From: a virus
Length of the DNA stretch: 13,730 bases
Reading direction: 5' to 3' (one strand)
UHGV virus genome: UHGV-0087644
Below the pieces are notes generated by a model that worked only from the letters and a program-made list of their open reading frames with translations, made no database searches and was not told the origin of the DNA. Each line of letters opens with the position of its first letter. The stretch's first letter is position 1. Shown in pieces: positions 264 to 8,509 of the stretch. The position numbers were made by a program, and so were the translations under genes.

Positions 264-632
264 TCACTCCCCTTTGATGCGAATGCCAGCGGCGCGGATT
301 GCATCGATGACTTCAGAAACTTTGTATGCCATTACCGTTTGGTAATCATCGTGAAAATCTGTTCGATGAAGCATGCTGCTACGTTCCGGGAGCAGTATTT
401 CCCGCTCCTCCAGTTCTGCAATGCGTTTGCTTTGAGCTTCCAGTTCACCCAGTAGTGCCAGCACGGTAGCCGGATTAGCCTTGGCAATAAAATCCCGGAC
501 TGGCTTACAATCAATCTCCGCACTACCGTGACGAATAACGAAAAAATCACCGTTTATTTTTTTAGCTTGCCACTTATCTTTACCGGCTTTCACTGCCACA
601 TCACGCAGTGCCTGATAGTCAATCTCGCTCAC
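264..632 (-). CDS. hypothetical phage protein (possibly Ead/Ea22-like, tentative)
   Basis: 122-aa ORF in track; GTG start at 632-630 preceded by strong SD AAGGAGG; overlaps upstream gene by 14 nt. Family label is from memory of an ANPATVLALLxELE-type motif only. Confidence 0.55.
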   Translation of the reverse strand: MSEIDYQALRDVAVKAGKDKWQAKKINGDFFVIRHGSAEIDCKPVRDFIAKANPATVLALLGELEAQSKRIAELEEREILLPERSSMLHRTDFHDDYQTVMAYKVSEVIDAIRAAGIRIKGE

Positions 633-1113
633 TGGTTACCTCCTTCATAAAAATAATCCAGTGGGTCTTGTCACCCTTTCCTGTTCGTTGACCGATAACA
701 GGCTTTCTGTCGGTCAGTGCCAATATCTGGCGAACAGGTATTTGCGTTTCATTCCATTTAAAAATCAGAACGCCGTATGGCCACAACACACGAAAGGCTT
801 CTTTGAATCCCTGCCGTAAATCATCACGCCAGGTATCTTTATTCAGCCGTCCATATTTCTTTCCCATCCAGGCGTTATCACCAACACGCTCAAGATGCGG
901 AGGGTCGAATACAACCATCGAAAAGGATGCGTCTGCAAATGGTAGTGCACGAAAATCAGCCATCAGGTCAGGACTGATAATCAGGCGTCGTCCATCACAC
1001 AATGTGTGCTCTTCCTTTCTGATATCGCTAAATATCGCCCGGTCGTCATTCTTATCGAACCAGAACATGCGACTACCACAGCACATGTCGAGGATTGCTG
1101 CATGTCCAGTCAC
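619..1113 (-). CDS. small SAM-dependent methyltransferase, probably DNA N6-adenine/N4-cytosine type
   Basis: 164-aa ORF; motif-I-like ILDMCCGS near N-terminus and motif-IV-like VVFDPPH about 60 aa later; GTG start at 1113 with strong SD AAGGAGG, overlapping upstream stop (GTGA). Target and base specificity not determinable by eye. Confidence 0.55.
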   Translation of the reverse strand: MTGHAAILDMCCGSRMFWFDKNDDRAIFSDIRKEEHTLCDGRRLIISPDLMADFRALPFADASFSMVVFDPPHLERVGDNAWMGKKYGRLNKDTWRDDLRQGFKEAFRVLWPYGVLIFKWNETQIPVRQILALTDRKPVIGQRTGKGDKTHWIIFMKEVTSERD

Positions 1114-1802
1114 TGGTTGCCTCCTTTGCGAAGCTGGGCATCGGTATTGATGCGACTAAAATAGAATCCGAATACTTTCTTCCATGGCTTAACAACAGCG
1201 TCCCTGATTGAGTTTGGGTTAAATCCAGCCTCGATGGCCTGTTTGCTGTCAAAGAACACATACCCAAAACCTTCCTCGTTCTCAGCGCAGACTGGACCTT
1301 TATACGAACCGTGTTTTCTTCCCCCGGCCAGACCTGTTCTATATGCGTGCTGAGTGTTGCCCGCTACCGTCGTCCACTCCAGGTTTGAAACATCATTGTT
1401 TTGTTTATTCCCGTCTATATGGTTAATTACGTGCTCATCAGAAGGCTTAGGGCCGAGAAAGTTTTCAGCAACTAATCGGTGGATGTTCACGCCTTTTAGT
1501 TTTCCTTCAAGCTCCAGCCTAACGAATAAATACTGATTTCTGTTCTTGCCGCGCATGGTTGGGTTTAATTGCTTTAGTTCGCCAGAGGCCAATGAGAAAA
1601 TGAGTCCCTTTGAGGTGATGAAATAGCGATACTTAAAACCAAAAATCTCTTTCACATCGCCAAATAAGTCAGCCAGCGCCGCGCACTTGGCCTCCGCTTC
1701 AGCAAATTTACGCACCAGATATTCAGCGTTTGTTTCGTTAACCTTTAAATCACTTGGGATGCATTTACCTTTCAGAAATCCATCCATCTCAATTAGTGTC
1801 AT
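1110..1802 (-). CDS. HNH homing-endonuclease-like protein (NUMOD4 + HNH_3 type)
   Basis: Track ORF 1110-1829; contains [17 protein letters not shown] (NUMOD4-like) then [20 protein letters not shown] (HNH_3 signature). Start chosen at ATG 1802, which overlaps the upstream stop (ATGA); 1811 or GTG 1829 are alternatives. Confidence 0.7.
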
Positions 1803-1972
1803 TTGTTCCATTTCTTCCCACTCCGCCACATTGCATTCAGATATTTGTTGTCATTAACAGAACCGAAACTATTTCTCTTAAGCAATTCCTCTCTCGATGG
1901 CATTGGCTTTACGCGTTGGCGAATAATCATTTCTGCCGGAAGAATGCCGGGATTGTATGCAAGTCCTCTCAT
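1799..1972 (-). CDS. hypothetical small protein (57 aa)
   Basis: Sub-ORF of track ORF 1799-2122; ATG at 1972 preceded by GAGGA; stop overlaps HNH start. The longer track version would overlap the upstream gene extensively. Confidence 0.3.
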
Positions 1973-1982
1973 TGTAAATTCC

Positions 1983-2276
1983 TCAGTCATTACTGATAGC
2001 GCCATAGCGTGAGCGGTAATTACGCAGGCGCGGGTCAATTTCAGGGAAGTGGGTATATGTGGCTTTGCGGAATGGTCGGATTGATGTCTGGTAAATTCGC
2101 TCGCGTTCTTCTTTCTCTGCAAGCCATATACAGTGGCGAAATTCCTTTTCCTCTTTCGTTTCCTGCGGTAGAGACATTATTCGATCGTAGTTTTTTCTGA
2201 ATTTATCCAGCACCTCCGATACGGAATTGCCGGAACAGCGGCGCGGGTCATCCGCACCATACAAAGGCGCTGGCAT
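1983..2276 (-). CDS. hypothetical protein, possibly anti-RecBCD Abc2-like (P22 abc2 position and size)
   Basis: 97-aa ORF with SD AAGGAT before ATG 2276; sits distal to erf as abc2 does in P22. Assignment is by position, size and partial sequence recall, not a search. Confidence 0.45.
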
Positions 2277-2299
2277 AATTAAATCCTTATTTTTCTAAA

Positions 2300-2683
2300 T
2301 CAGAATGGGATGGAATCGTCGTATACAGGAGTGTTCTGCTGGTTACTACTTTGCTGCTGCGGGCCATTTCCTGAAGCTGCAAATCCAATCTTTGCATTCA
2401 GTAATTCAAGAGTGATTGATTGACCATTTTGCCCCTGATAAATATCAACCCTGATGTTTTCTCCGGTAATTTCAACAATGCCACCTTCAACAAGAACACT
2501 ACGGTAGTAATCCGCTTGCGCTCCCGGCTTGGCAAATACAACGGAGCTGTAGTTTGTCCATTCTTTCTTTTTTGTCTGGCGATCGTAATACTGAACGCCA
2601 GCACGGATGTTGAATCCGATATTTTCCCCGGTATGAAACTCTCTTGCGGGCTTGTTTAGTCTTACGGTAATCGAATGTGCCAT
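2300..2683 (-). CDS. mini single-stranded-DNA-binding (SSB-like, OB-fold) protein
   Basis: Start at internal ATG 2683-2681, overlapping erf stop (TAATG); 127 aa ending in DDSIPF, the canonical SSB acidic C-terminal tail, preceded by a Gly/Gln-rich linker and OB-fold-like N-terminal region. Confidence 0.55.
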   Translation of the reverse strand: MAHSITVRLNKPAREFHTGENIGFNIRAGVQYYDRQTKKKEWTNYSSVVFAKPGAQADYYRSVLVEGGIVEITGENIRVDIYQGQNGQSITLELLNAKIGFAASGNGPQQQSSNQQNTPVYDDSIPF

Positions 2684-3288
2684 TAAGCAGCAGCTCCTTC
2701 TAATTCGTCTCGTCTGATGTTGTAAACGTCCTGCGCTTTGTGCTGCTCCGGTGTGCCTTCGAGCATCTTCCACGCTTTGGCGAACGCCTGTTTAAGCTCT
2801 TCTACGGTGTTTTTCTGCATTGCTGCGTCAGTGAATGCTTTTAGAACCTGTTCAGGTGTAGGTGATGGTTTTGATTGCTTTGCTGCTGCGTTCTGCTGAT
2901 GTTTATGCTCGTCGGTATCTGCATCTTTCGCATCATCAATGCCGAACAAACCATTGAGGCAATACTTGCGTGCATAAGAGCTTGTAGCTCCCGTAACTTG
3001 TGCAGAATCCATTCCTTTCTTGCTTTCTTCCTCTCGTGCAAGAGCGGTTGCCGTATGACTGTTTTCGCCATCGGTAATAGTTGCCGTGGCTTTCACGTAA
3101 TACCGATCACCAATCAACACAACTTCATCGCTGATTGATAAAAACAGACCATTCAGTAACGGCTTAACGCCTTCAAGAATGTCTTCGCAGCTTCTGTATT
3201 TATATTTACCGAATGAGTTGTACTGATTCTTTGGCGCGTTCAGATTCTCCTGAATGGCTGCCAGCCTTGCATAAAATTCTTTGCTCAT
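2683..3288 (-). CDS. erf: Erf, essential recombination function (ssDNA annealing) protein
   Basis: Track ORF 2683-3318; sequence from MSKEFYARLAAIQENLNAPKNQYNSFGKYKYRSCEDILEG matches my recollection of P22 Erf. Start placed at ATG 3288 because the 3318 start is a TTG without SD. Confidence 0.8.
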   Translation of the reverse strand: MSKEFYARLAAIQENLNAPKNQYNSFGKYKYRSCEDILEGVKPLLNGLFLSISDEVVLIGDRYYVKATATITDGENSHTATALAREEESKKGMDSAQVTGATSSYARKYCLNGLFGIDDAKDADTDEHKHQQNAAAKQSKPSPTPEQVLKAFTDAAMQKNTVEELKQAFAKAWKMLEGTPEQHKAQDVYNIRRDELEGAAA

Positions 3289-3389
3289 ATGTTTGATCTC
3301 AGAATGGACACGGCCCAAGGAAATAACGCTGATTTAATACTTCGACTCGGGACAAATTAAGGCATACCCGCATTCCTTCGCGGTCGCCA

Positions 3390-3548
3390 TTATGGCGATA
3401 CCAGAGAGCTTTCTGCGTGTACATGCGTCTCTGTAACTTGCTCTCCTTCACTGTGGTTGCAAGTGACATGAATATCTCCTTCGTTACCGATTAATTCTTT
3501 CATCTGACGAATGAATTCTTCGTCTGACCAGTTATCTGTAAAACTCAT
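3390..3548 (-). CDS. small protein in the Arf (accessory recombination function) position
   Basis: 52-aa ORF (MSFTDNWSDEEFIRQMKEL...) not in the track (<60 aa); ATG overlaps kil stop (ATGA); lies between kil and erf as arf does in P22. Position-based call. Confidence 0.4.
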   Translation of the reverse strand: MSFTDNWSDEEFIRQMKELIGNEGDIHVTCNHSEGEQVTETHVHAESSLVSP

Positions 3549-3697
3549 TTCCTGCGATACCACGGAAGGTTGATAGCTGATTTCATCGCTTTATTTGCTT
3601 CAATCCACATTTTTGAATCACCAATAAATCTGGCTATTACTGCTTTGTTCTGTGCTGCACGAAGCATCTGGTGATTGATGGCTATTTCATTGCGCAT
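3545..3697 (-). CDS. kil: Kil-like host cell-division inhibitor
   Basis: 50-aa ORF not in track: MRNEIAINHQMLRAAQNKAVIARFIGDSKMWIEANKAMKSAINLPWYRRK; resembles lambda Kil (FIGD-containing core) from memory; immediately downstream of cIII, start overlapping the cIII end. Confidence 0.55.
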   Translation of the reverse strand: MRNEIAINHQMLRAAQNKAVIARFIGDSKMWIEANKAMKSAINLPWYRRK

Positions 3698-3813
3698 AAT
3701 AAGACCTCAACTCTTTTCCATCCGTCACGTAATTTACGGGTGATTCGTTCAAGTAAAGATTCATTTAGTTGGAAGGCACCCATGCGAGCGCCTCCCGCGA
3801 TTGCGTAAATCAT
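3682..3813 (-). CDS. cIII: CIII, FtsH/HflB protease inhibitor
   Basis: 43-aa ORF not in track; contains ESLLERITRKLRDGWKR, matching the conserved lambda CIII core; ATG at 3813 preceded by SD AAGGAA. Confidence 0.8.
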   Translation of the reverse strand: MIYAIAGGARMGAFQLNESLLERITRKLRDGWKRVEVLLCAMK

Positions 3814-3837
3814 GGGTGGTTCCTTATGTTGGTTTTA

Positions 3838-4806
3838 TTAGTAGGTTATTTTTGTTGCGAATACTTCGCCTTTTACGATGGCTGTTATGATATTTTTAGC
3901 AACATCTTCTGATGCGCCAACCTTGATAAGGTCAGCAAGTATTTTGTTATTTACTTCTTTCCGGTGAGCTTTATCCTTTGCTCTACGCTCTTCTTCGTCC
4001 TTGATTCTTTTTCCTTCTGCTATTCTGGCTTGCTCTTTTGCTTCAGCCTCGCGCCGGATTCGTTCAGCCTCCTCCTGTGCTTTTCGGCGTTCTGCTTCAA
4101 TTGCCGCCTGCTTTTCTCTTTCAGCTCGTTCTGCTGCCTCTTTTGCTTCGCGCTGTGCTCGTTGCTCGGCTTCAATGCGTTCACGCTCTGCACGTTCCGC
4201 TGCGGCCTTAGCTTCTGCTTCTCGCCTTGCTGCTGCTTCAATTTCGGCTTTTGCCTTTGCTTCGGCTTCTGCTCTGGCTTTCTCTTCAGCTTCTCTTTTT
4301 AAGCGTTCTTCATACTCTCGCTTTTCCTGCTCCGCTTTGAGTCTTGCCTCTTCTCTTTGGCGGTCAAATTCGCGATCCATCAAAATAGCTATTTCATGGT
4401 CAGACTCAATTTGCTTTGCGAGAGCTTCAGCTGCTGCCTTAGCTTCTTCTTCGGCTTTAATCCGTGCCTGTTCCTCCTCATAATCAGTAAGAGGCTGGCG
4501 CGCCTTGGCTTTCAGTTCATCAAGGCGATCGCGCACTGTCTTGCGGTTGGCATCAATTAGCTTTGGAATTTCCTTCAGTTCAGCAACAAGGTCTTTGCCA
4601 AGACCATCGAGATATGTTTTCGTCTGCGCAACTTTATACGCCAGAGAAGCGATCTCCTTTCTGCCCTTTGCCGTTGTGATATCAGGCACAAAGGACATAA
4701 CTTCACGTTCAACCCTTTGAAGGATTTCTTCAATCTGGTCGGCAGACTGAAATACAGTCATTGCATTTGCTTTTTCAATAACAACTAAATCTGTTACTTC
4801 ACTCAT
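3838..4806 (-). CDS. coiled-coil protein with long E/R/K/A-rich helical segment, function unknown
   Basis: 322-aa track ORF; ATG 4806 with SD GGAGG; folded-looking N-terminal about 110 aa, then about 160 aa of charged low-complexity helix (EAEAKAKAEIEAAARREAEAKAAAERAERE...), then short C-terminal domain ending KITY. Confidence 0.7.
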   Translation of the reverse strand: MSEVTDLVVIEKANAMTVFQSADQIEEILQRVEREVMSFVPDITTAKGRKEIASLAYKVAQTKTYLDGLGKDLVAELKEIPKLIDANRKTVRDRLDELKAKARQPLTDYEEEQARIKAEEEAKAAAEALAKQIESDHEIAILMDREFDRQREEARLKAEQEKREYEERLKREAEEKARAEAEAKAKAEIEAAARREAEAKAAAERAERERIEAEQRAQREAKEAAERAEREKQAAIEAERRKAQEEAERIRREAEAKEQARIAEGKRIKDEEERRAKDKAHRKEVNNKILADLIKVGASEDVAKNIITAIVKGEVFATKITY

Positions 4807-4818
4807 ATATCCTCCGTC

Positions 4819-4846
4819 AAAAAATTGCCCTCACACTGGAGGGCAA
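4819..4846 (-). terminator. rho-independent terminator candidate (minus strand) just upstream of the coiled-coil gene
   Basis: Perfect 8-bp stem TTGCCCTC/GAGGGCAA (4825-4832 / 4839-4846) with 6-nt loop; A6 run at 4819-4824 on the plus strand gives a U-run after the hairpin on the minus transcript. Confidence 0.55.
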
Positions 4847-4937
4847 AGAAGATTTCCAATAATCAGAACAAGTCGGCTCCTGTTTAGTTACGAGCGACAT
4901 TGCCCACATAGCAGACTCGCAAATCTGCTATATGTGC

Positions 4938-5099
4938 TTATTCGCATCGCATGACAACATCAAATTTTTCGAGATTACTTTGTCGCAACAATCCCTCTTC
5001 TACGCGGTCAGCTTTTCTATAATTATCAAATTCGAAATGTTTAATTACTTCTTTCGTTTCTCGCTCTATAACTTCAACGATGTATTTCTTATTCATCAT
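4938..5099 (-). CDS. hypothetical small protein (53 aa)
   Basis: ORF MMNKKYIVEVIERETKEVIKHFEFDNYRKADRVEEGLLRQSNLEKFDVVMRCE, not in track; ATG overlaps upstream stop (ATGA). Confidence 0.3.
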   Translation of the reverse strand: MMNKKYIVEVIERETKEVIKHFEFDNYRKADRVEEGLLRQSNLEKFDVVMRCE

Positions 5100-5395
5100 T
5101 CTTCCCCAAGAGCTTTGCTGATTGCTGACTGTGCTTTCGATACTTCATCAGGATAATGGTCATTCCAGTTTTGCTTGTATGCCTTGTTTAGCATCGCTTG
5201 CAGGGCATTTAAAAGGTCTGGTGCTGCCGCTATCAGATTCATATCTTCTTTGCTAACGATTAGTGATGAGTGACCATCCTTCATGACATAAGAGTCGATG
5301 ACACCACCATCTTTACCTGTTGCTTGACTGCTTAATCGCAGAAAGCTGTTACTTGTCCACCATTTCCATGGGCCGGGTGTATAATTCATATTCAC
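5096..5395 (-). CDS. hypothetical phage protein (possibly Ead/Ea22-like C-terminal region, tentative)
   Basis: 99-aa track ORF; SD GAGGTG before tandem ATGs at 5395/5389; LIAAAPDLLNALQAM motif recalled from Ea22-like prophage proteins. Confidence 0.5.
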   Translation of the reverse strand: MNMNYTPGPWKWWTSNSFLRLSSQATGKDGGVIDSYVMKDGHSSLIVSKEDMNLIAAAPDLLNALQAMLNKAYKQNWNDHYPDEVSKAQSAISKALGEE

Positions 5396-5428: not shown

Positions 5429-5629
5429 TCAGGCAGCCTTGTTATTCTGTTTACCAAGTTCTCTGGCAATCATTGCCGTCGTTCGTATTGCCCATTTATC
5501 GACATATTTCCCATCTTCCATTACAGGAAACATTTCTTCAGGCTTAACCATGCATTCCGATTGCAGCTTGCATCCATTGCATCGCTTGAATTGTCCACAC
5601 CATTGATTTTTATCAATAGTCGTAGTCAT
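5429..5629 (-). CDS. ral: Ral-like restriction-alleviation protein
   Basis: 66-aa track ORF MTTTIDKNQWCGQFKRCNGCKLQSECMVKPEEMFPVMEDGKYVDKWAIRTTAMIARELGKQNNKAA; matches my recollection of lambda Ral (same length, same N-terminus). Confidence 0.6.
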   Translation of the reverse strand: MTTTIDKNQWCGQFKRCNGCKLQSECMVKPEEMFPVMEDGKYVDKWAIRTTAMIARELGKQNNKAA

Positions 5630-5842: not shown

Positions 5843-6025
5843 TCAGCGTACCTCTACTCCTGATGCGCCTCCATCGGGGTCAGGCGACCCATTAAAAGAC
5901 TTTCTGTGCTGAATTTCGTAACGAAGCGTCTTAATCGAAACGTCCACGGCATCGGCAAAACTGATGCCTTCTTCATTGGCCAGTTCCTGAACTACTCTTT
6001 TCAGTTCATTGTCCAAATTTTCCAT
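5843..6025 (-). CDS. hypothetical small protein (60 aa)
   Basis: Track ORF 5843-6049 trimmed to ATG 6025, preceded by AGGGGTGAGGG; MENLDNELKRVVQELANEEGISFADAVDVSIKTLRYEIQ... Confidence 0.45.
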   Translation of the reverse strand: MENLDNELKRVVQELANEEGISFADAVDVSIKTLRYEIQHRKSFNGSPDPDGGASGVEVR

Positions 6026-6100
6026 ACCCTCACCCCTTTGTTTATTCACCGCAGGCCACTCGACCCGCTCGATTCGTTCTGTGCGTAATGCTTGCGCCGA

Positions 6101-6261: not shown

Positions 6262-6603
6262 CTACTCCTTAAGAAGGCGCTCAAGGAATGCGCCATTACA
6301 GTCAATTACATCGATGATCTCTTTGGCTAATGAATCGATATCGTCGCTCGATTCGAAGTCATCCTGTGGGATGTAAAAGCCACCCTCAGTTTTAAACATA
6401 ATTTCCTTGACGGTTAATGCTGCAACCTCATACATAAAGCCATAAACAATGCGTCGAGGGGTGTTATACCTGAGTCCGAGGATCTTTAATTTTTCTGACT
6501 CCTGAGTCAGCTGGTCGTATGCCTTTACCAGCTCCGCTATCAGTCCCTTTTTCAGCTCACCACGCAGTACGTACATCCCGTTAGCCGTTTTATTTTCCAT
6601 CAC
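6262..6603 (-). CDS. hypothetical protein (113 aa)
   Basis: Track ORF; start overlaps upstream stop (6600-6603); no motif recognised. Confidence 0.55.
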   Translation of the reverse strand: MMENKTANGMYVLRGELKKGLIAELVKAYDQLTQESEKLKILGLRYNTPRRIVYGFMYEVAALTVKEIMFKTEGGFYIPQDDFESSDDIDSLAKEIIDVIDCNGAFLERLLKE

Positions 6604-6897: not shown

Positions 6898-7242
6898 CTA
6901 TGACCATTTTTTATTTGGATTTCGTTGGTGAGCGTGATTAACAACTCTGTGCATTACATCCTCATATTTTTCATCTTCAATTTTTTCGACATCGCGAGGA
7001 AATGGTGTTGCTAATGCTTTGTCAACTTTGTCCATTGGTTCTTCATTAATCTTATATTCAGGACCGTCATCTATAGCATTAAATCCAGGTGTTACACCGT
7101 TTTTTAATGCATATGCTATCCTTTTTTCCCATCTCGCTATTCTCCTCCTGTCTCGAGATGTAAGACCTCTATCAGATACTTTTCTGTTTTGTCCGCGGTC
7201 AGGATTAACATAAATAGTCTTTTTCACCATAAGCATACTCAA
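6898..7242 (-). CDS. hypothetical protein with arginine-rich N-terminal region (114 aa)
   Basis: Track ORF; start overlaps N stop (ATGA); SRDRRRIARWEKRIAYALKNG is basic; followed directly by a terminator. Confidence 0.5.
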   Translation of the reverse strand: MSMLMVKKTIYVNPDRGQNRKVSDRGLTSRDRRRIARWEKRIAYALKNGVTPGFNAIDDGPEYKINEEPMDKVDKALATPFPRDVEKIEDEKYEDVMHRVVNHAHQRNPNKKWS

Positions 7243-7544
7243 TAAGCACCGTACGGTAGTTTACTGTACAATTTTATTTTTTGGACTGCATGTATTTTGT
7301 TTCCTAACGGGTTTGAATCTTTGTAATAAATACTTCTATTTTTTCGAACGACTTCTTCTTTCTTCTTGCAGCAAAGGCTTCCTAGTGATGCTGCTTTGTC
7401 TGCTCTGACGCAACCAGAGAGCTTTAGCGCAATTTTTCGCGCCAGTGCTTCATTACTGCGTCGCTCGGCAATAAGTTCTGCTCTGCGAGCTTTGTAGCGG
7501 CTTTTTGCCGTACCTTTGGATTCTTTCCAGACAATGGTTACCAT
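7239..7544 (-). CDS. N: N-like transcription antitermination protein (phi21-type arginine-rich motif)
   Basis: Track ORF 7239-7574 trimmed to ATG 7544 (SD AGGAG); N-terminus MVTIVWKESKGTAKSRYKARRAELIAERR matches the phi21 N arginine-rich RNA-binding peptide as I recall it; nutL lies upstream. Confidence 0.75.
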   Translation of the reverse strand: MVTIVWKESKGTAKSRYKARRAELIAERRSNEALARKIALKLSGCVRADKAASLGSLCCKKKEEVVRKNRSIYYKDSNPLGNKIHAVQKIKLYSKLPYGAY

Positions 7545-7654
7545 AATGGTCTCCTTTAAGTGGCTTTGGCGCATGACGCGTCGAGGTGCTTATCTTCTCG
7601 ATCGCTGTCTTGCAGCTGCAATTCGCGCCATCCCCAAAACCACTCAAGTTCTGG

Positions 7655-7834: not shown

Positions 7835-7860
7835 AAATAAAAAAGGGGCGAAAGCCCCTT
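7835..7860 (-). terminator. rho-independent terminator for the cI transcript
   Basis: Stem AAGGGGC/GCCCCTT (7843-7849 / 7854-7860) with GAAA loop, followed on the minus strand by UUUUAUUU; overlaps the cI stop codon. Confidence 0.55.
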
Positions 7861-8509
7861 AAGGAAGGTTTGCTAGCTTGGCATCAACGACAACGCCAAT
7901 GATTTTACAGTTCCCATTGATTTCAATCATTGGGTATTGTGGATTGAGTGGTTTCAGGAATTTTCTACCGGCATCAATAACTAACTTTTTGAATGTCGCC
8001 TCGTTTTCCCCTTCAAGTTTGGCGACTACCAGCTTTCCATTACGTGGTTCGACTTCTGGGTCGACGAGAATAATCATCCCCTCAGGAATACTCAGTCCTG
8101 CCGGGGCAGTCATTGAATCGCCTTTAACGTCGAGCCAAAAAGAGTCTTCAGAACAATCTACCGTTGTGTCGTACCAGTTATCTATTGCACGCCTATGATA
8201 TGGCTCTACAGCTTCCATCCAACATCCTGCGCTTACCCAACTAATTAGAGGATACGAACCTCTTGGATCATGCCTGCTGTGATAGGCAATGTTTGAAAGA
8301 CTATCCTCTCCTTTCAACAGGTAATCAGGGGAGCACTGCAAAGCCTTGGCTAAGGCCAATAGGTTTTCGCCATTGGGCTCAGTTTCAGATCGCTCCCATT
8401 GGGAAATAGCAACATTAGACACGCCAACCATCTTGCCAAGGGCAGCCTGCCTAATCTTGAGTTCTTTTCTGCGAGCGCGAATACGCTCACCCATCAGTTG
8501 TGTATTCAT
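7859..8509 (-). CDS. cI: CI-type prophage repressor (HTH + S24 LexA-like peptidase domain)
   Basis: 216-aa track ORF; N-terminal HTH (QAALGKMVGVSNVAISQWER); C-terminal FWLDVKGDSMTAPAGLSIPEGMIILVDP...ATFKKL...FLKPLNPQYPMIE closely parallels the lambda CI C-terminal domain. Confidence 0.9.
   Translation of the reverse strand: MNTQLMGERIRARRKELKIRQAALGKMVGVSNVAISQWERSETEPNGENLLALAKALQCSPDYLLKGEDSLSNIAYHSRHDPRGSYPLISWVSAGCWMEAVEPYHRRAIDNWYDTTVDCSEDSFWLDVKGDSMTAPAGLSIPEGMIILVDPEVEPRNGKLVVAKLEGENEATFKKLVIDAGRKFLKPLNPQYPMIEINGNCKIIGVVVDAKLANLP

Follow-up and report, generated by a model that had tools for sequence, protein, structure and literature searches.

What does a gene for a long, charged, rod-like protein do in the early left region of a lambdoid phage? 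This question is raised by the virus genome UHGV-0087644, of which a stretch of 13,730 nucleotides (nt), referred to below as the window, was analysed and in which an open reading frame (ORF) of 322 amino acids (3838-4806, minus strand, ATG start; from the ORF listing and translation) lies between ral and cIII. A first-pass annotation, made from the DNA letters of this window and delimiting the locus as 3838-4937 (the ORF plus 131 nt of upstream non-coding DNA), had placed the gene correctly in this slot and had rightly recognised both its strong Shine-Dalgarno sequence and the terminator hairpin with an 8-bp stem directly upstream. From slot and terminator, it had proposed a stand-alone, insulated accessory gene with a candidate superinfection-exclusion or host-interaction function. 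The gene turns out to be an already known and extremely common one, belonging to a family with one genetically characterised member. Very probably, it joins the poorly characterised Agt family, with gp39 of phage phi80 (Lula) as its prototype, and shares the association of this family with phage recombination modules.

The homology with phi80 Agt extends over the full length of the protein. BLASTP aligned residues 1-322 with residues 1-322 of phi80 Agt at 50% identity (E-value 2e-62), with the N-terminal domain, the rod and the C-terminal domain all included, and the N-terminal domain alone was 39% identical to phi80 Agt (tblastn, E-value 3e-13). Both proteins count 322 amino acids, have the same three-part plan and are encoded at a pL position ahead of the recombination genes. 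The phi80 RefSeq record lists gp39 as agt, 'anti-toxin for Gam', and adds 'Mog (modifier of Gam)'; next come gamL ('gam-like host nuclease inhibitor; toxic without Mog'), recT and exo. Reportedly, the product of gamL inhibits RecBCD as well as SbcCD, and cloning gamL by itself is toxic; its antidote is agt, which 'apparently encodes a modifier protein'. Lysogens of phi80 are said to be phenocopies of recD and sbcCD, which has been attributed to GamL and Agt. GamL has also been cited as a blocker of RecBCD (PMC12315714). The literature on 'modifier of Gam', agt and GamL yielded nothing further. The phi80 locus differs from the present one in that gamL starts 8 nt after agt, whereas the target gene and its 82 close relatives lack gamL and are followed by cIII and usually kil instead.

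The first-pass annotation could not match the protein to a family with confidence, which holds for curated families (Pfam, NCBIfam, PADLOC and PHROG functions) but not for the phi80 homologue. Pfam gave no family for the target protein at an E-value of at most 1 and no relevant match for 47 diverse family members, three unrelated families matching one or two members each. Similarly, the matches in NCBIfam and PADLOC were noise, the best PADLOC match being LmuB (E-value 0.05), which fell in the rod and is probably compositional. The profile search against families of domains of unknown function (DUF), proposed in the first pass, gave nothing meaningful with 21 N-terminal domains (E-values up to 10). 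PDB sequence profiles returned compositional rod matches alone for the full-length protein and nothing below an E-value of 0.2 for the N-terminal domain, and fold searches were uninformative, no PDB fold being matched. In PHROG, the protein is placed in phrog_1376, labelled 'unknown function'.

At the DNA level, the gene is 98-99% identical to gene 33 of Sf6 and its counterparts in mEp043, mEp213, mEp234, CUS-3, IME10, HF4s and Stx1a phages, and DNA of the N-terminal domain and terminator region was retrieved from 1387 of the 5426 complete Escherichia coli genomes. A phmmer search with residues 1-121 gave 4987 clusters at 50% identity, in which the domain is always N-terminal and the proteins count about 300-400 amino acids. 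In addition, tblastn against annotated phages gave 156 records, with hosts including Pseudomonas, Vibrio, Klebsiella, Erwinia, Shewanella, Acinetobacter, Sinorhizobium and Aeromonas, and with one Leptolyngbya phage and phi80 gp39 among the records.

The association with recombination genes was found throughout this range. In all 12 annotated phages inspected (hosts Escherichia/Shigella, Klebsiella, Pseudomonas, Sinorhizobium, Acinetobacter, Vibrio, Shewanella, Serratia, Aeromonas, Erwinia and Leptolyngbya), the Agt-like gene adjoins a gene for ERF, RecT or Bet, with or without YqaJ or ExoVIII, or lies within about 2.6 kb of it. The order is Agt, ERF, YqaJ in D3, phiLM21 and Leptolyngbya phage Lbo-JY16; Agt, Bet, YqaJ in Acinetobacter phage TCUAN1; Agt, GamL, RecT or Bet, Exo in phi80 and Klebsiella phage ST101-KPC2phi6.1; Agt, small ORF, Exo, RecT in Aeromonas phage 62AhydR11PP; and Agt, ORF, ExoVIII, small ORF, Bet in Serratia phage Eta. 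The ERF gene comes first in Vibrio phage BT-1011 (ERF, SSB, Agt) and Shewanella phage ZP9 (ERF, Exo, small ORF, Agt, RdgC) and lies about 1 kb downstream of Agt in Erwinia phage 49, and Sf6 has the order Agt, cIII, kil, two small ORFs, Erf. The window itself reads target gene, cIII, kil, two small ORFs, Erf, SSB, Abc2, with the target at the head of the recombination module.

A wider sample comprised 195 loci with the N-terminal domain (30 clusters at 90% identity), of which the neighbouring ORFs were clustered and the largest clusters named by Pfam; a query made from the family alignment retrieved near-identical E. coli loci alone, and three more distant queries were added for diversity. An ERF, RecT, Rad52/22 or Sak4-like AAA_24 protein was encoded within four genes of the Agt-like gene in 173 of the 195 loci and 23 of the 30 clusters, and several clusters counted as negative were positive by annotation (L004, L007 and L011). 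Random placement in a genome of about 65 genes would, by our estimate, give about 12%. YqaJ was present in 20 of the 30 clusters, and the modal order was Agt (+0), annealing protein (+1) and YqaJ (+2). Judged by gene order, the family occupies the promoter-proximal edge of the recombination module, which is the place of gam in lambda.

Other proteins are known from this position. Lambda Gam, phi80 GamL, Mu Gam and P22 Abc2 are likewise encoded promoter-proximal to the annealing protein and exonuclease (gam-bet-exo in lambda) and probably have a functional theme in common with Agt, namely host RecBCD/SbcCD. However, they are not homologous to Agt, which is about three times larger and contains a long rod, and instead of standing in for them, Agt is found alongside GamL, Abc2 or a Gam-sized protein. 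In phages of Firmicutes, the slot upstream of erf-ssb or sak4 is taken by MuGam, DUF2483, DUF1351 or Gp157, which have been read as functional analogues (PMC8093625). Agt thus has its slot in common with DUF1351 (PF07083), Sipho_Gp157 (PF05565) and DUF2483, which lie beside erf-ssb, sak4 or recT (PMC8093625), and adjacency to the gene of a phage single-strand annealing protein, a trait of DUF1351 and Gp157, was found for the Agt family too. Homology with DUF1351 or Gp157 is not claimed, as PF07083 and PF05565 were matched neither by the target nor by 47 full-length relatives nor by 21 N-terminal domains (E-values up to 10).

The association is not bound to one partner. At 82 loci with the target allele, cIII (in nearly all) and usually kil are followed by genes for ERF (35 loci), Rad52 (26), a Sak4-like protein (8) or RecT (6), and Abc2 is present in 73. 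An obligatory pairing of Agt with Abc2 was rejected, since full-length loci of the target allele without Abc2 exist, six of them with RecT modules and one with a lambda-like module (a 138-amino acid protein, Bet and Exo). The recombination module as a whole is the constant feature, which suggests that Agt may act on a target common to all such modules, and these gene contents point to host double-strand-end nucleases or the DNA ends themselves as the probable common target.

The lambdoid phage Kapi1 shares much of the window and has no Agt-like gene, an 82-amino acid ORF being found in the slot. Kapi1 also carries a Sipho_Gp157-like gene directly after RecT (Kapi1 features at 1588-2070 and 3710-3958), and a 162-amino acid ORF lies at the same position in the six RecT loci with the Agt allele and without Abc2. 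This hints that helical accessory genes around recombination modules may be interchangeable.

A more specific role would be that of a dedicated antitoxin or modifier of one toxic early protein (e.g. Abc2 or Kil), with the N- and C-terminal domains as allele-specific partner modules. The annotation of agt in phi80 speaks for such a role, as does its spacing. Upstream sequence sufficed for this comparison at 77 GamL loci; Agt lies upstream in 33 of them, with 8 nt between its stop codon and the gamL start in every case, which suggests translational coupling. Furthermore, the GamL-linked alleles have distinct N-terminal domain types (40% and 60% identical to the target), and the target allele itself has cIII behind it in nearly all of its 82 loci, kil in most and Abc2 in 73. 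However, the same full-length allele also occurs without Abc2 and once with the lambda-like module, genomes of Pseudomonas, Sinorhizobium and Acinetobacter phages and of the cyanophage go straight to ERF or RecT with no small candidate toxin in between, and a rod of 322 amino acids is unlike typical antitoxins. A dedicated antitoxin is quite unlikely. Of the 77 GamL loci, 44 have no Agt within 3.5 kb, so GamL has no general need of Agt, and the idea that Agt is in general simply the antitoxin of GamL was rejected, as each occurs alone more often than both occur together. In the 44 loci, the DNA upstream of gamL holds a phi80-type kil, an HNH-like protein gene or other small ORFs.

Composition, AlphaFold2 models and alignments agree with the three-part protein described in the first pass, the parts being an N-terminal domain of about 125 residues, a rod of about 155 residues rich in Glu, Ala, Arg and Lys, and a C-terminal domain of 42 residues. 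The alignments show conservation throughout the family at both ends of the protein, namely in the N-terminal domain (up to about residue 125) and in the C-terminal domain (the last 42 residues, beyond an H-R-K motif). The residues T45, R49, K63, G70, K78, D85, R88 and E110 of the former are invariant, and the latter counts 42-44 residues in 45 of 48 diverse members and has a predicted local distance difference test score (pLDDT) of 89-96. Selection on the minus-strand frame is purifying, with a ratio of nonsynonymous to synonymous polymorphism (pN/pS) of 0.13 for the whole gene and of 0.07, 0.17 and 0.37 for the N-terminal domain, the rod and the C-terminal domain, respectively (76 unique alleles). 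Antisense ORFs of 112 and 160 amino acids are present within the rod-coding DNA (window positions 3964-4483, plus strand; e.g. 4001-4483, plus strand, 160 amino acids). They were rejected as genes, being low-complexity artefacts (Ser, Ala and Arg) of the GAA/GCN/CGN codon bias.

The composition of the rod had been compared in the first pass with a single alpha-helix of the Glu-Arg/Lys (ER/K) type or with TolA, and this comparison was borne out. Glu, Ala, Arg, Lys and Gln make up 85% of residues 111-280 and 91% of residues 150-280, and opposite-charge pairs number 60 at the spacing i,i+4 against 23-32 at other spacings, so that the long E/R/K segment with dense i,i+4 pairs that marks ER/K single alpha-helices is present. 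Ala and hydrophobic residues recur with a periodicity of 3.67 residues that was matched by 0.2% of shuffled sequences; through this Ala-rich 11/3 stripe, and through its folding back as a hairpin in one AlphaFold2 model, the rod may differ from a pure ER/K helix. The modelling proposed in the first pass gave a long helix in both models, although as a single helix in one and as a hairpin in the other. With a shallow alignment, AlphaFold2 predicted a single helix (residues 69-295) and a poorly defined N-terminal domain; with 47 diverse homologues (pLDDT 85), it predicted helices 46-175 and 189-295, separated by a low-confidence break (176-188) that may represent an antiparallel hairpin joining the N- and C-terminal domains. 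Natural indels of the rod (+11, -22, -32, -47 and -77 residues, among others) keep neither heptad nor hendecad register, which argues against a strict parallel coiled coil and does not decide between hairpin and single helix.

E. coli alleles that are otherwise 89-99% identical count 245, 275, 290, 296, 300-309, 322 or 333 amino acids. The differences are indels between repeats of the AEAK/ERAE type, including an exact duplication of 11 amino acids, and this length polymorphism probably arises from slippage or recombination in repetitive DNA.

A membrane segment was not found (the maximum 19-residue Kyte-Doolittle mean was 1.03, in the C-terminal domain), the N-terminus is polar and the protein contains no cysteines; most likely, it is cytoplasmic and soluble. 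This bears on the names of these proteins in databases, which are 'hypothetical', 'coiled-coil domain-containing' and, most often, 'cell envelope biogenesis protein TolA'. A TolA-like cell-envelope protein is what these names of NCBI and its Prokaryotic Genome Annotation Pipeline (PGAP) imply, and the rod does resemble TolA domain II, as it does ER/K helices, in its richness in Glu, Ala, Arg and Lys, its excess of i,i+4 opposite-charge pairs and its prediction as a very long helix. However, the target scores 9.8 bits with TIGR02794 against a cutoff of 59.45, no stretch of it passing alone, and it has no Pfam TolA domain, no N-terminal membrane anchor and no TolA domain III. Moreover, it is encoded in a phage early operon and not in a tol-pal context. 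A TolA identity was rejected and can practically be dismissed; the name that PGAP gives to the target family in many E. coli genomes is a systematic annotation error.

The same architecture, together with the gene order, could also be read as that of a tether between DNA ends or between DNA molecules, which would make the Agt family a recombination factor of its own. The conserved heads would bind DNA or its ends and the rod would bridge or hold them, so that phage DNA that is broken or linear would be protected and channelled to any annealing protein encoded next. The rescue from GamL toxicity would then reflect replacement of the lost end handling by RecBCD, and not binding of GamL. The gam slot of Agt ahead of an annealing protein and an exonuclease in most clusters is consistent with a tether, as are its independence of the type of recombinase and of the type of anti-RecBCD protein, the invariant or near-invariant basic residues of its N-terminal domain (R49, K63, K71, K78, K82, R88, R92, R103 and R115) and a rod length that varies as for a spacer. 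The same slot in Firmicutes phages can hold MuGam, a DNA-end binder. According to the 2010 Lula paper, the repair defect of recBCD mutants is lessened by certain prophage functions (PMC2885432). However, no DNA-binding fold or motif was found by the Pfam, fold and PDB profile searches, the N-terminal domain has a net charge of -2, a zinc hook or cysteine as in SbcC or Rad50 is lacking, and the case is purely inferential. Overall, a tether is unlikely.

The upstream DNA tells how the gene may be expressed. The hairpin consists of a 5' arm TTGCCCTC (4846-4839), a loop (4838-4833), a 3' arm GAGGGCAA (4832-4825) and a run of six T residues (4824-4819), and its RNA folds with -13.2 kcal/mol (z = -2.1 against shuffled sequences). 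The consensus terminator scan alone was not above chance, with four terminator-like sites against 2.6 expected in 2 kb; the terminator is significant because about 85 nt, hairpin included, match the DNA that precedes ea10 in lambda and gene 33 in Sf6. In a three-way alignment, the lambda copy of these 85 nt differs by a single substitution, located within the hairpin, and the Sf6 annotation names the same hairpin 'tL2A, homology to phage lambda', inside a mosaic 'boundary sequence'. To judge from the alignment, the stretch 4819-4903 is a mosaic junction that is conserved while the gene attached behind it differs, being either ea10 or the Agt-like gene. Because its upstream junction matches that of ea10, the target gene sits in the ea10 slot of lambda. 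Lambda Ea10 likewise has the tL2a terminator and junction immediately upstream and cIII downstream, but it counts 122 amino acids and has no sequence similarity to the target (E-value 1.3). A second inverted repeat on the minus strand (TAGCAGA...TCTGCTA, 4909-4930; 7-bp stem, 8-nt loop) has no T-run and lies just past the stop codon of a 53-amino acid ORF, at a place where lambda and Sf6 are gapped in the alignment.

In the pL operon of lambda, the genes beyond tL2 (cIII, kil, gam, bet and exo) are delayed-early and need N-modified polymerase. A sequence scan found no sigma-70-like promoter between the hairpin and the ATG, promoter-like sites on the minus strand between 3500 and 5500 were limited to one at 3542, cIII starts 24 nt past the target stop codon and no terminator was found by scanning between the two. 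The tL2a junction upstream, the lack of a promoter-like site and the proximity of cIII make it most likely that the target belongs to the delayed-early genes of the pL operon, depends on N and shares a transcript with cIII, kil, erf, ssb and abc2. The description as a stand-alone gene is incompatible with this close linkage to cIII, and the terminator appears as a conserved element of the pL operon, found in lambda and Sf6 alike, and not as the private insulator it had been taken for.

The proposed exclusion function had rested on slot and insulation. As a moron-like accessory gene giving the lysogen superinfection exclusion or anti-phage defence, the target would be well placed in the variable N-to-cIII interval, near which lambda has sieB and ral, and its function is formally unassigned (PHROG 1376). 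The phenotype reported for phi80 lysogens also suggests that a homologue may be expressed to some extent in the prophage state. However, neither a promoter-like site of its own nor a downstream terminator was found, so the moron layout is absent; the hairpin ahead of the gene belongs to the tL2a junction, which lambda has as well; and the protein has neither a membrane segment nor a match to a defence family, the PADLOC hit to LmuB in the rod probably being compositional. Furthermore, the linkage to recombination genes is family-wide and includes a 40-kb Vibrio podovirus of unestablished lifestyle, and the window already has an exclusion gene, the Nun homologue (6898-7242). This Nun-like protein, which we take to be nearly identical to HK022 Nun and to end in KKWS, is encoded directly downstream of the N-like antiterminator; the same pairing of N and Nun is found in Kapi1 and, as an annotated feature, in mEp235 and mEpX1. 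By its similarity and position, the Nun homologue beside N, and not the target, is the genuine exclusion-type gene of the window, and an exclusion function of the target is very unlikely.

The explanation preferred here is that of a soluble, cytoplasmic Agt-family rod protein that is an accessory of the recombination/anti-nuclease module, to which, as a whole, a probability of about one half is given. The target would be made as an N-dependent delayed-early protein along with cIII, kil, Erf, SSB and Abc2 and would act on the processing of double-strand ends by the host (RecBCD/SbcCD) or on DNA ends, not on a particular phage recombinase. It would tune the anti-nuclease effect of the phage, allowing recombination-dependent replication without the toxicity of full nuclease inhibition, as the genetics suggest for Agt with GamL in phi80. 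The conserved N- and C-terminal domains would be binding surfaces, and the length-variable ER/K-Ala rod would act as a spacer, either an antiparallel hairpin of about 16 nm or a single helix of about 34 nm. The activity proposed here, modulation of RecBCD/SbcCD action or handling of DNA ends, is put forward tentatively, at somewhat less than even odds. In this form, as modulation of host DNA-end nucleases, the host-interaction function of the first-pass annotation may hold, unlike its exclusion part.

The pN/pS values of 0.07-0.17 in phages without GamL count in favour of an Agt function of this kind, and several points weigh against it. First, lambdoid synteny is weak evidence by itself, because all genes of the early left operon lie near the recombination module; the non-lambdoid cases carry the argument. 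Second, the function of phi80 Agt is taken from GenBank notes, and we know of no Agt-family member with a known biochemical activity. Third, neither the window nor any of the 82 close loci gave a match to GamL, and Agt is missing from the 44 GamL loci mentioned above. Fourth, the GamL-linked Agt alleles are just 40% or 60% identical to the target in the N-terminal domain, so that the phi80 function may not transfer. Lastly, the hairpin appears in one of the two AlphaFold2 monomer models, with a predicted template modelling score of 0.37, and neither Gly/Pro enrichment nor a helix breaker was found at the midpoint of the rod across the family.

The features of the locus and of its surroundings are collected in Table 1. 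By its gene content, the window comes from a lambdoid coliphage of the P22 or Sf6 kind and covers the immunity and early genes of that phage. Beyond cI, long rightward ORFs correspond to cro, cII, O and P, judged by their positions in Kapi1. In the interval between N and ral, the ORFs 6262-6603 (minus strand, 113 amino acids) and 5843-6049 (minus strand, 68 amino acids) had no PHROG match at an E-value of at most 1e-5; they are better candidates than the target for unexplored accessory functions.

Table 1. Features of the Agt-like locus and neighbouring genes in the window of UHGV-0087644
Feature	Position	Strand	Remark
DNA methyltransferase	619-1113	-	Downstream of Abc2, early-left operon
HNH endonuclease	1110-1829	-	Downstream of Abc2, early-left operon
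Whole downstream recombination module	1983-3563	-	PHROG matches
Abc2 (anti-RecBCD)	1983-2276	-	PHROG match
SSB	2300-2773	-	PHROG match
Erf	2683-3318	-	PHROG match
Two small ORFs	3390-3563 and 3299-3469	-	PHROG matches; PHROGs named 'recombinase'
kil	3545-3697	-	PHROG 2055, E-value 3.6e-35
cIII	3682-3813	-	PHROG 550, E-value 1.6e-20
Agt-family coding sequence (= Sf6 gene 33)	3838-4806	-	Stop codon 3838-3840
C-terminal small domain, residues 281-322 (42 amino acids)	3841-3966	-	H-R-K to I-x-Y
Charged Ala-rich helical rod, residues ~126-280	3967-4431	-	Length differs between alleles
N-terminal domain, residues 1 to ~125	4432-4806	-	Family-defining part
Shine-Dalgarno sequence GGAGG	4811-4815	-	4 nt before ATG, read from the sequence
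Intrinsic terminator, lambda tL2a homologue	4819-4846	-	8-bp stem, 6-nt loop, T6
Mosaic junction common to lambda and Sf6 ('bsq4' boundary sequence in Sf6)	4819-4903	-	Three-way alignment
Two small ORFs without assigned function	5096-5395 and 4938-5099	-	
ral	5429-5629	-	
Nun-like gene	6898-7242	-	PHROG 'Nun-like transcription termination factor', E-value 9e-71
N-like gene	7239-7574	-	
cI	7859-8509	-	

The analysis is useful for two corrections, one to the TolA label and one to the exclusion idea, and for the link of the whole family to recombination modules irrespective of the type of recombinase. In databases, 'cell envelope biogenesis protein TolA' is a widespread but wrong name for these proteins, and 'Agt-like, recombination-module associated' would be the appropriate one. 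It is possible, if rather doubtful, that phage recombination modules of Proteobacteria, and of at least one cyanophage, have in the Agt family a widespread core accessory that has so far gone unrecognised, namely a recombinase-independent rod factor acting on DNA ends or on RecBCD/SbcCD; roughly one in four complete E. coli genomes carries a family member under the name 'TolA'. If true, Agt would form a new functional class beside Gam, Abc2 and MuGam, and a Gram-negative counterpart of the occupants of the DUF1351/Gp157/DUF2483 slot in Firmicutes phages. Phage recombination systems (Red, RecET and Erf/Abc2) are used in recombineering and shape the mosaicism of prophages, and a conserved, recombinase-independent partner that may temper the toxicity of nuclease inhibitors could explain why some transplanted modules perform poorly without their neighbours. 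The old phi80 observation that GamL is toxic unless Agt is present thereby becomes testable in many systems.

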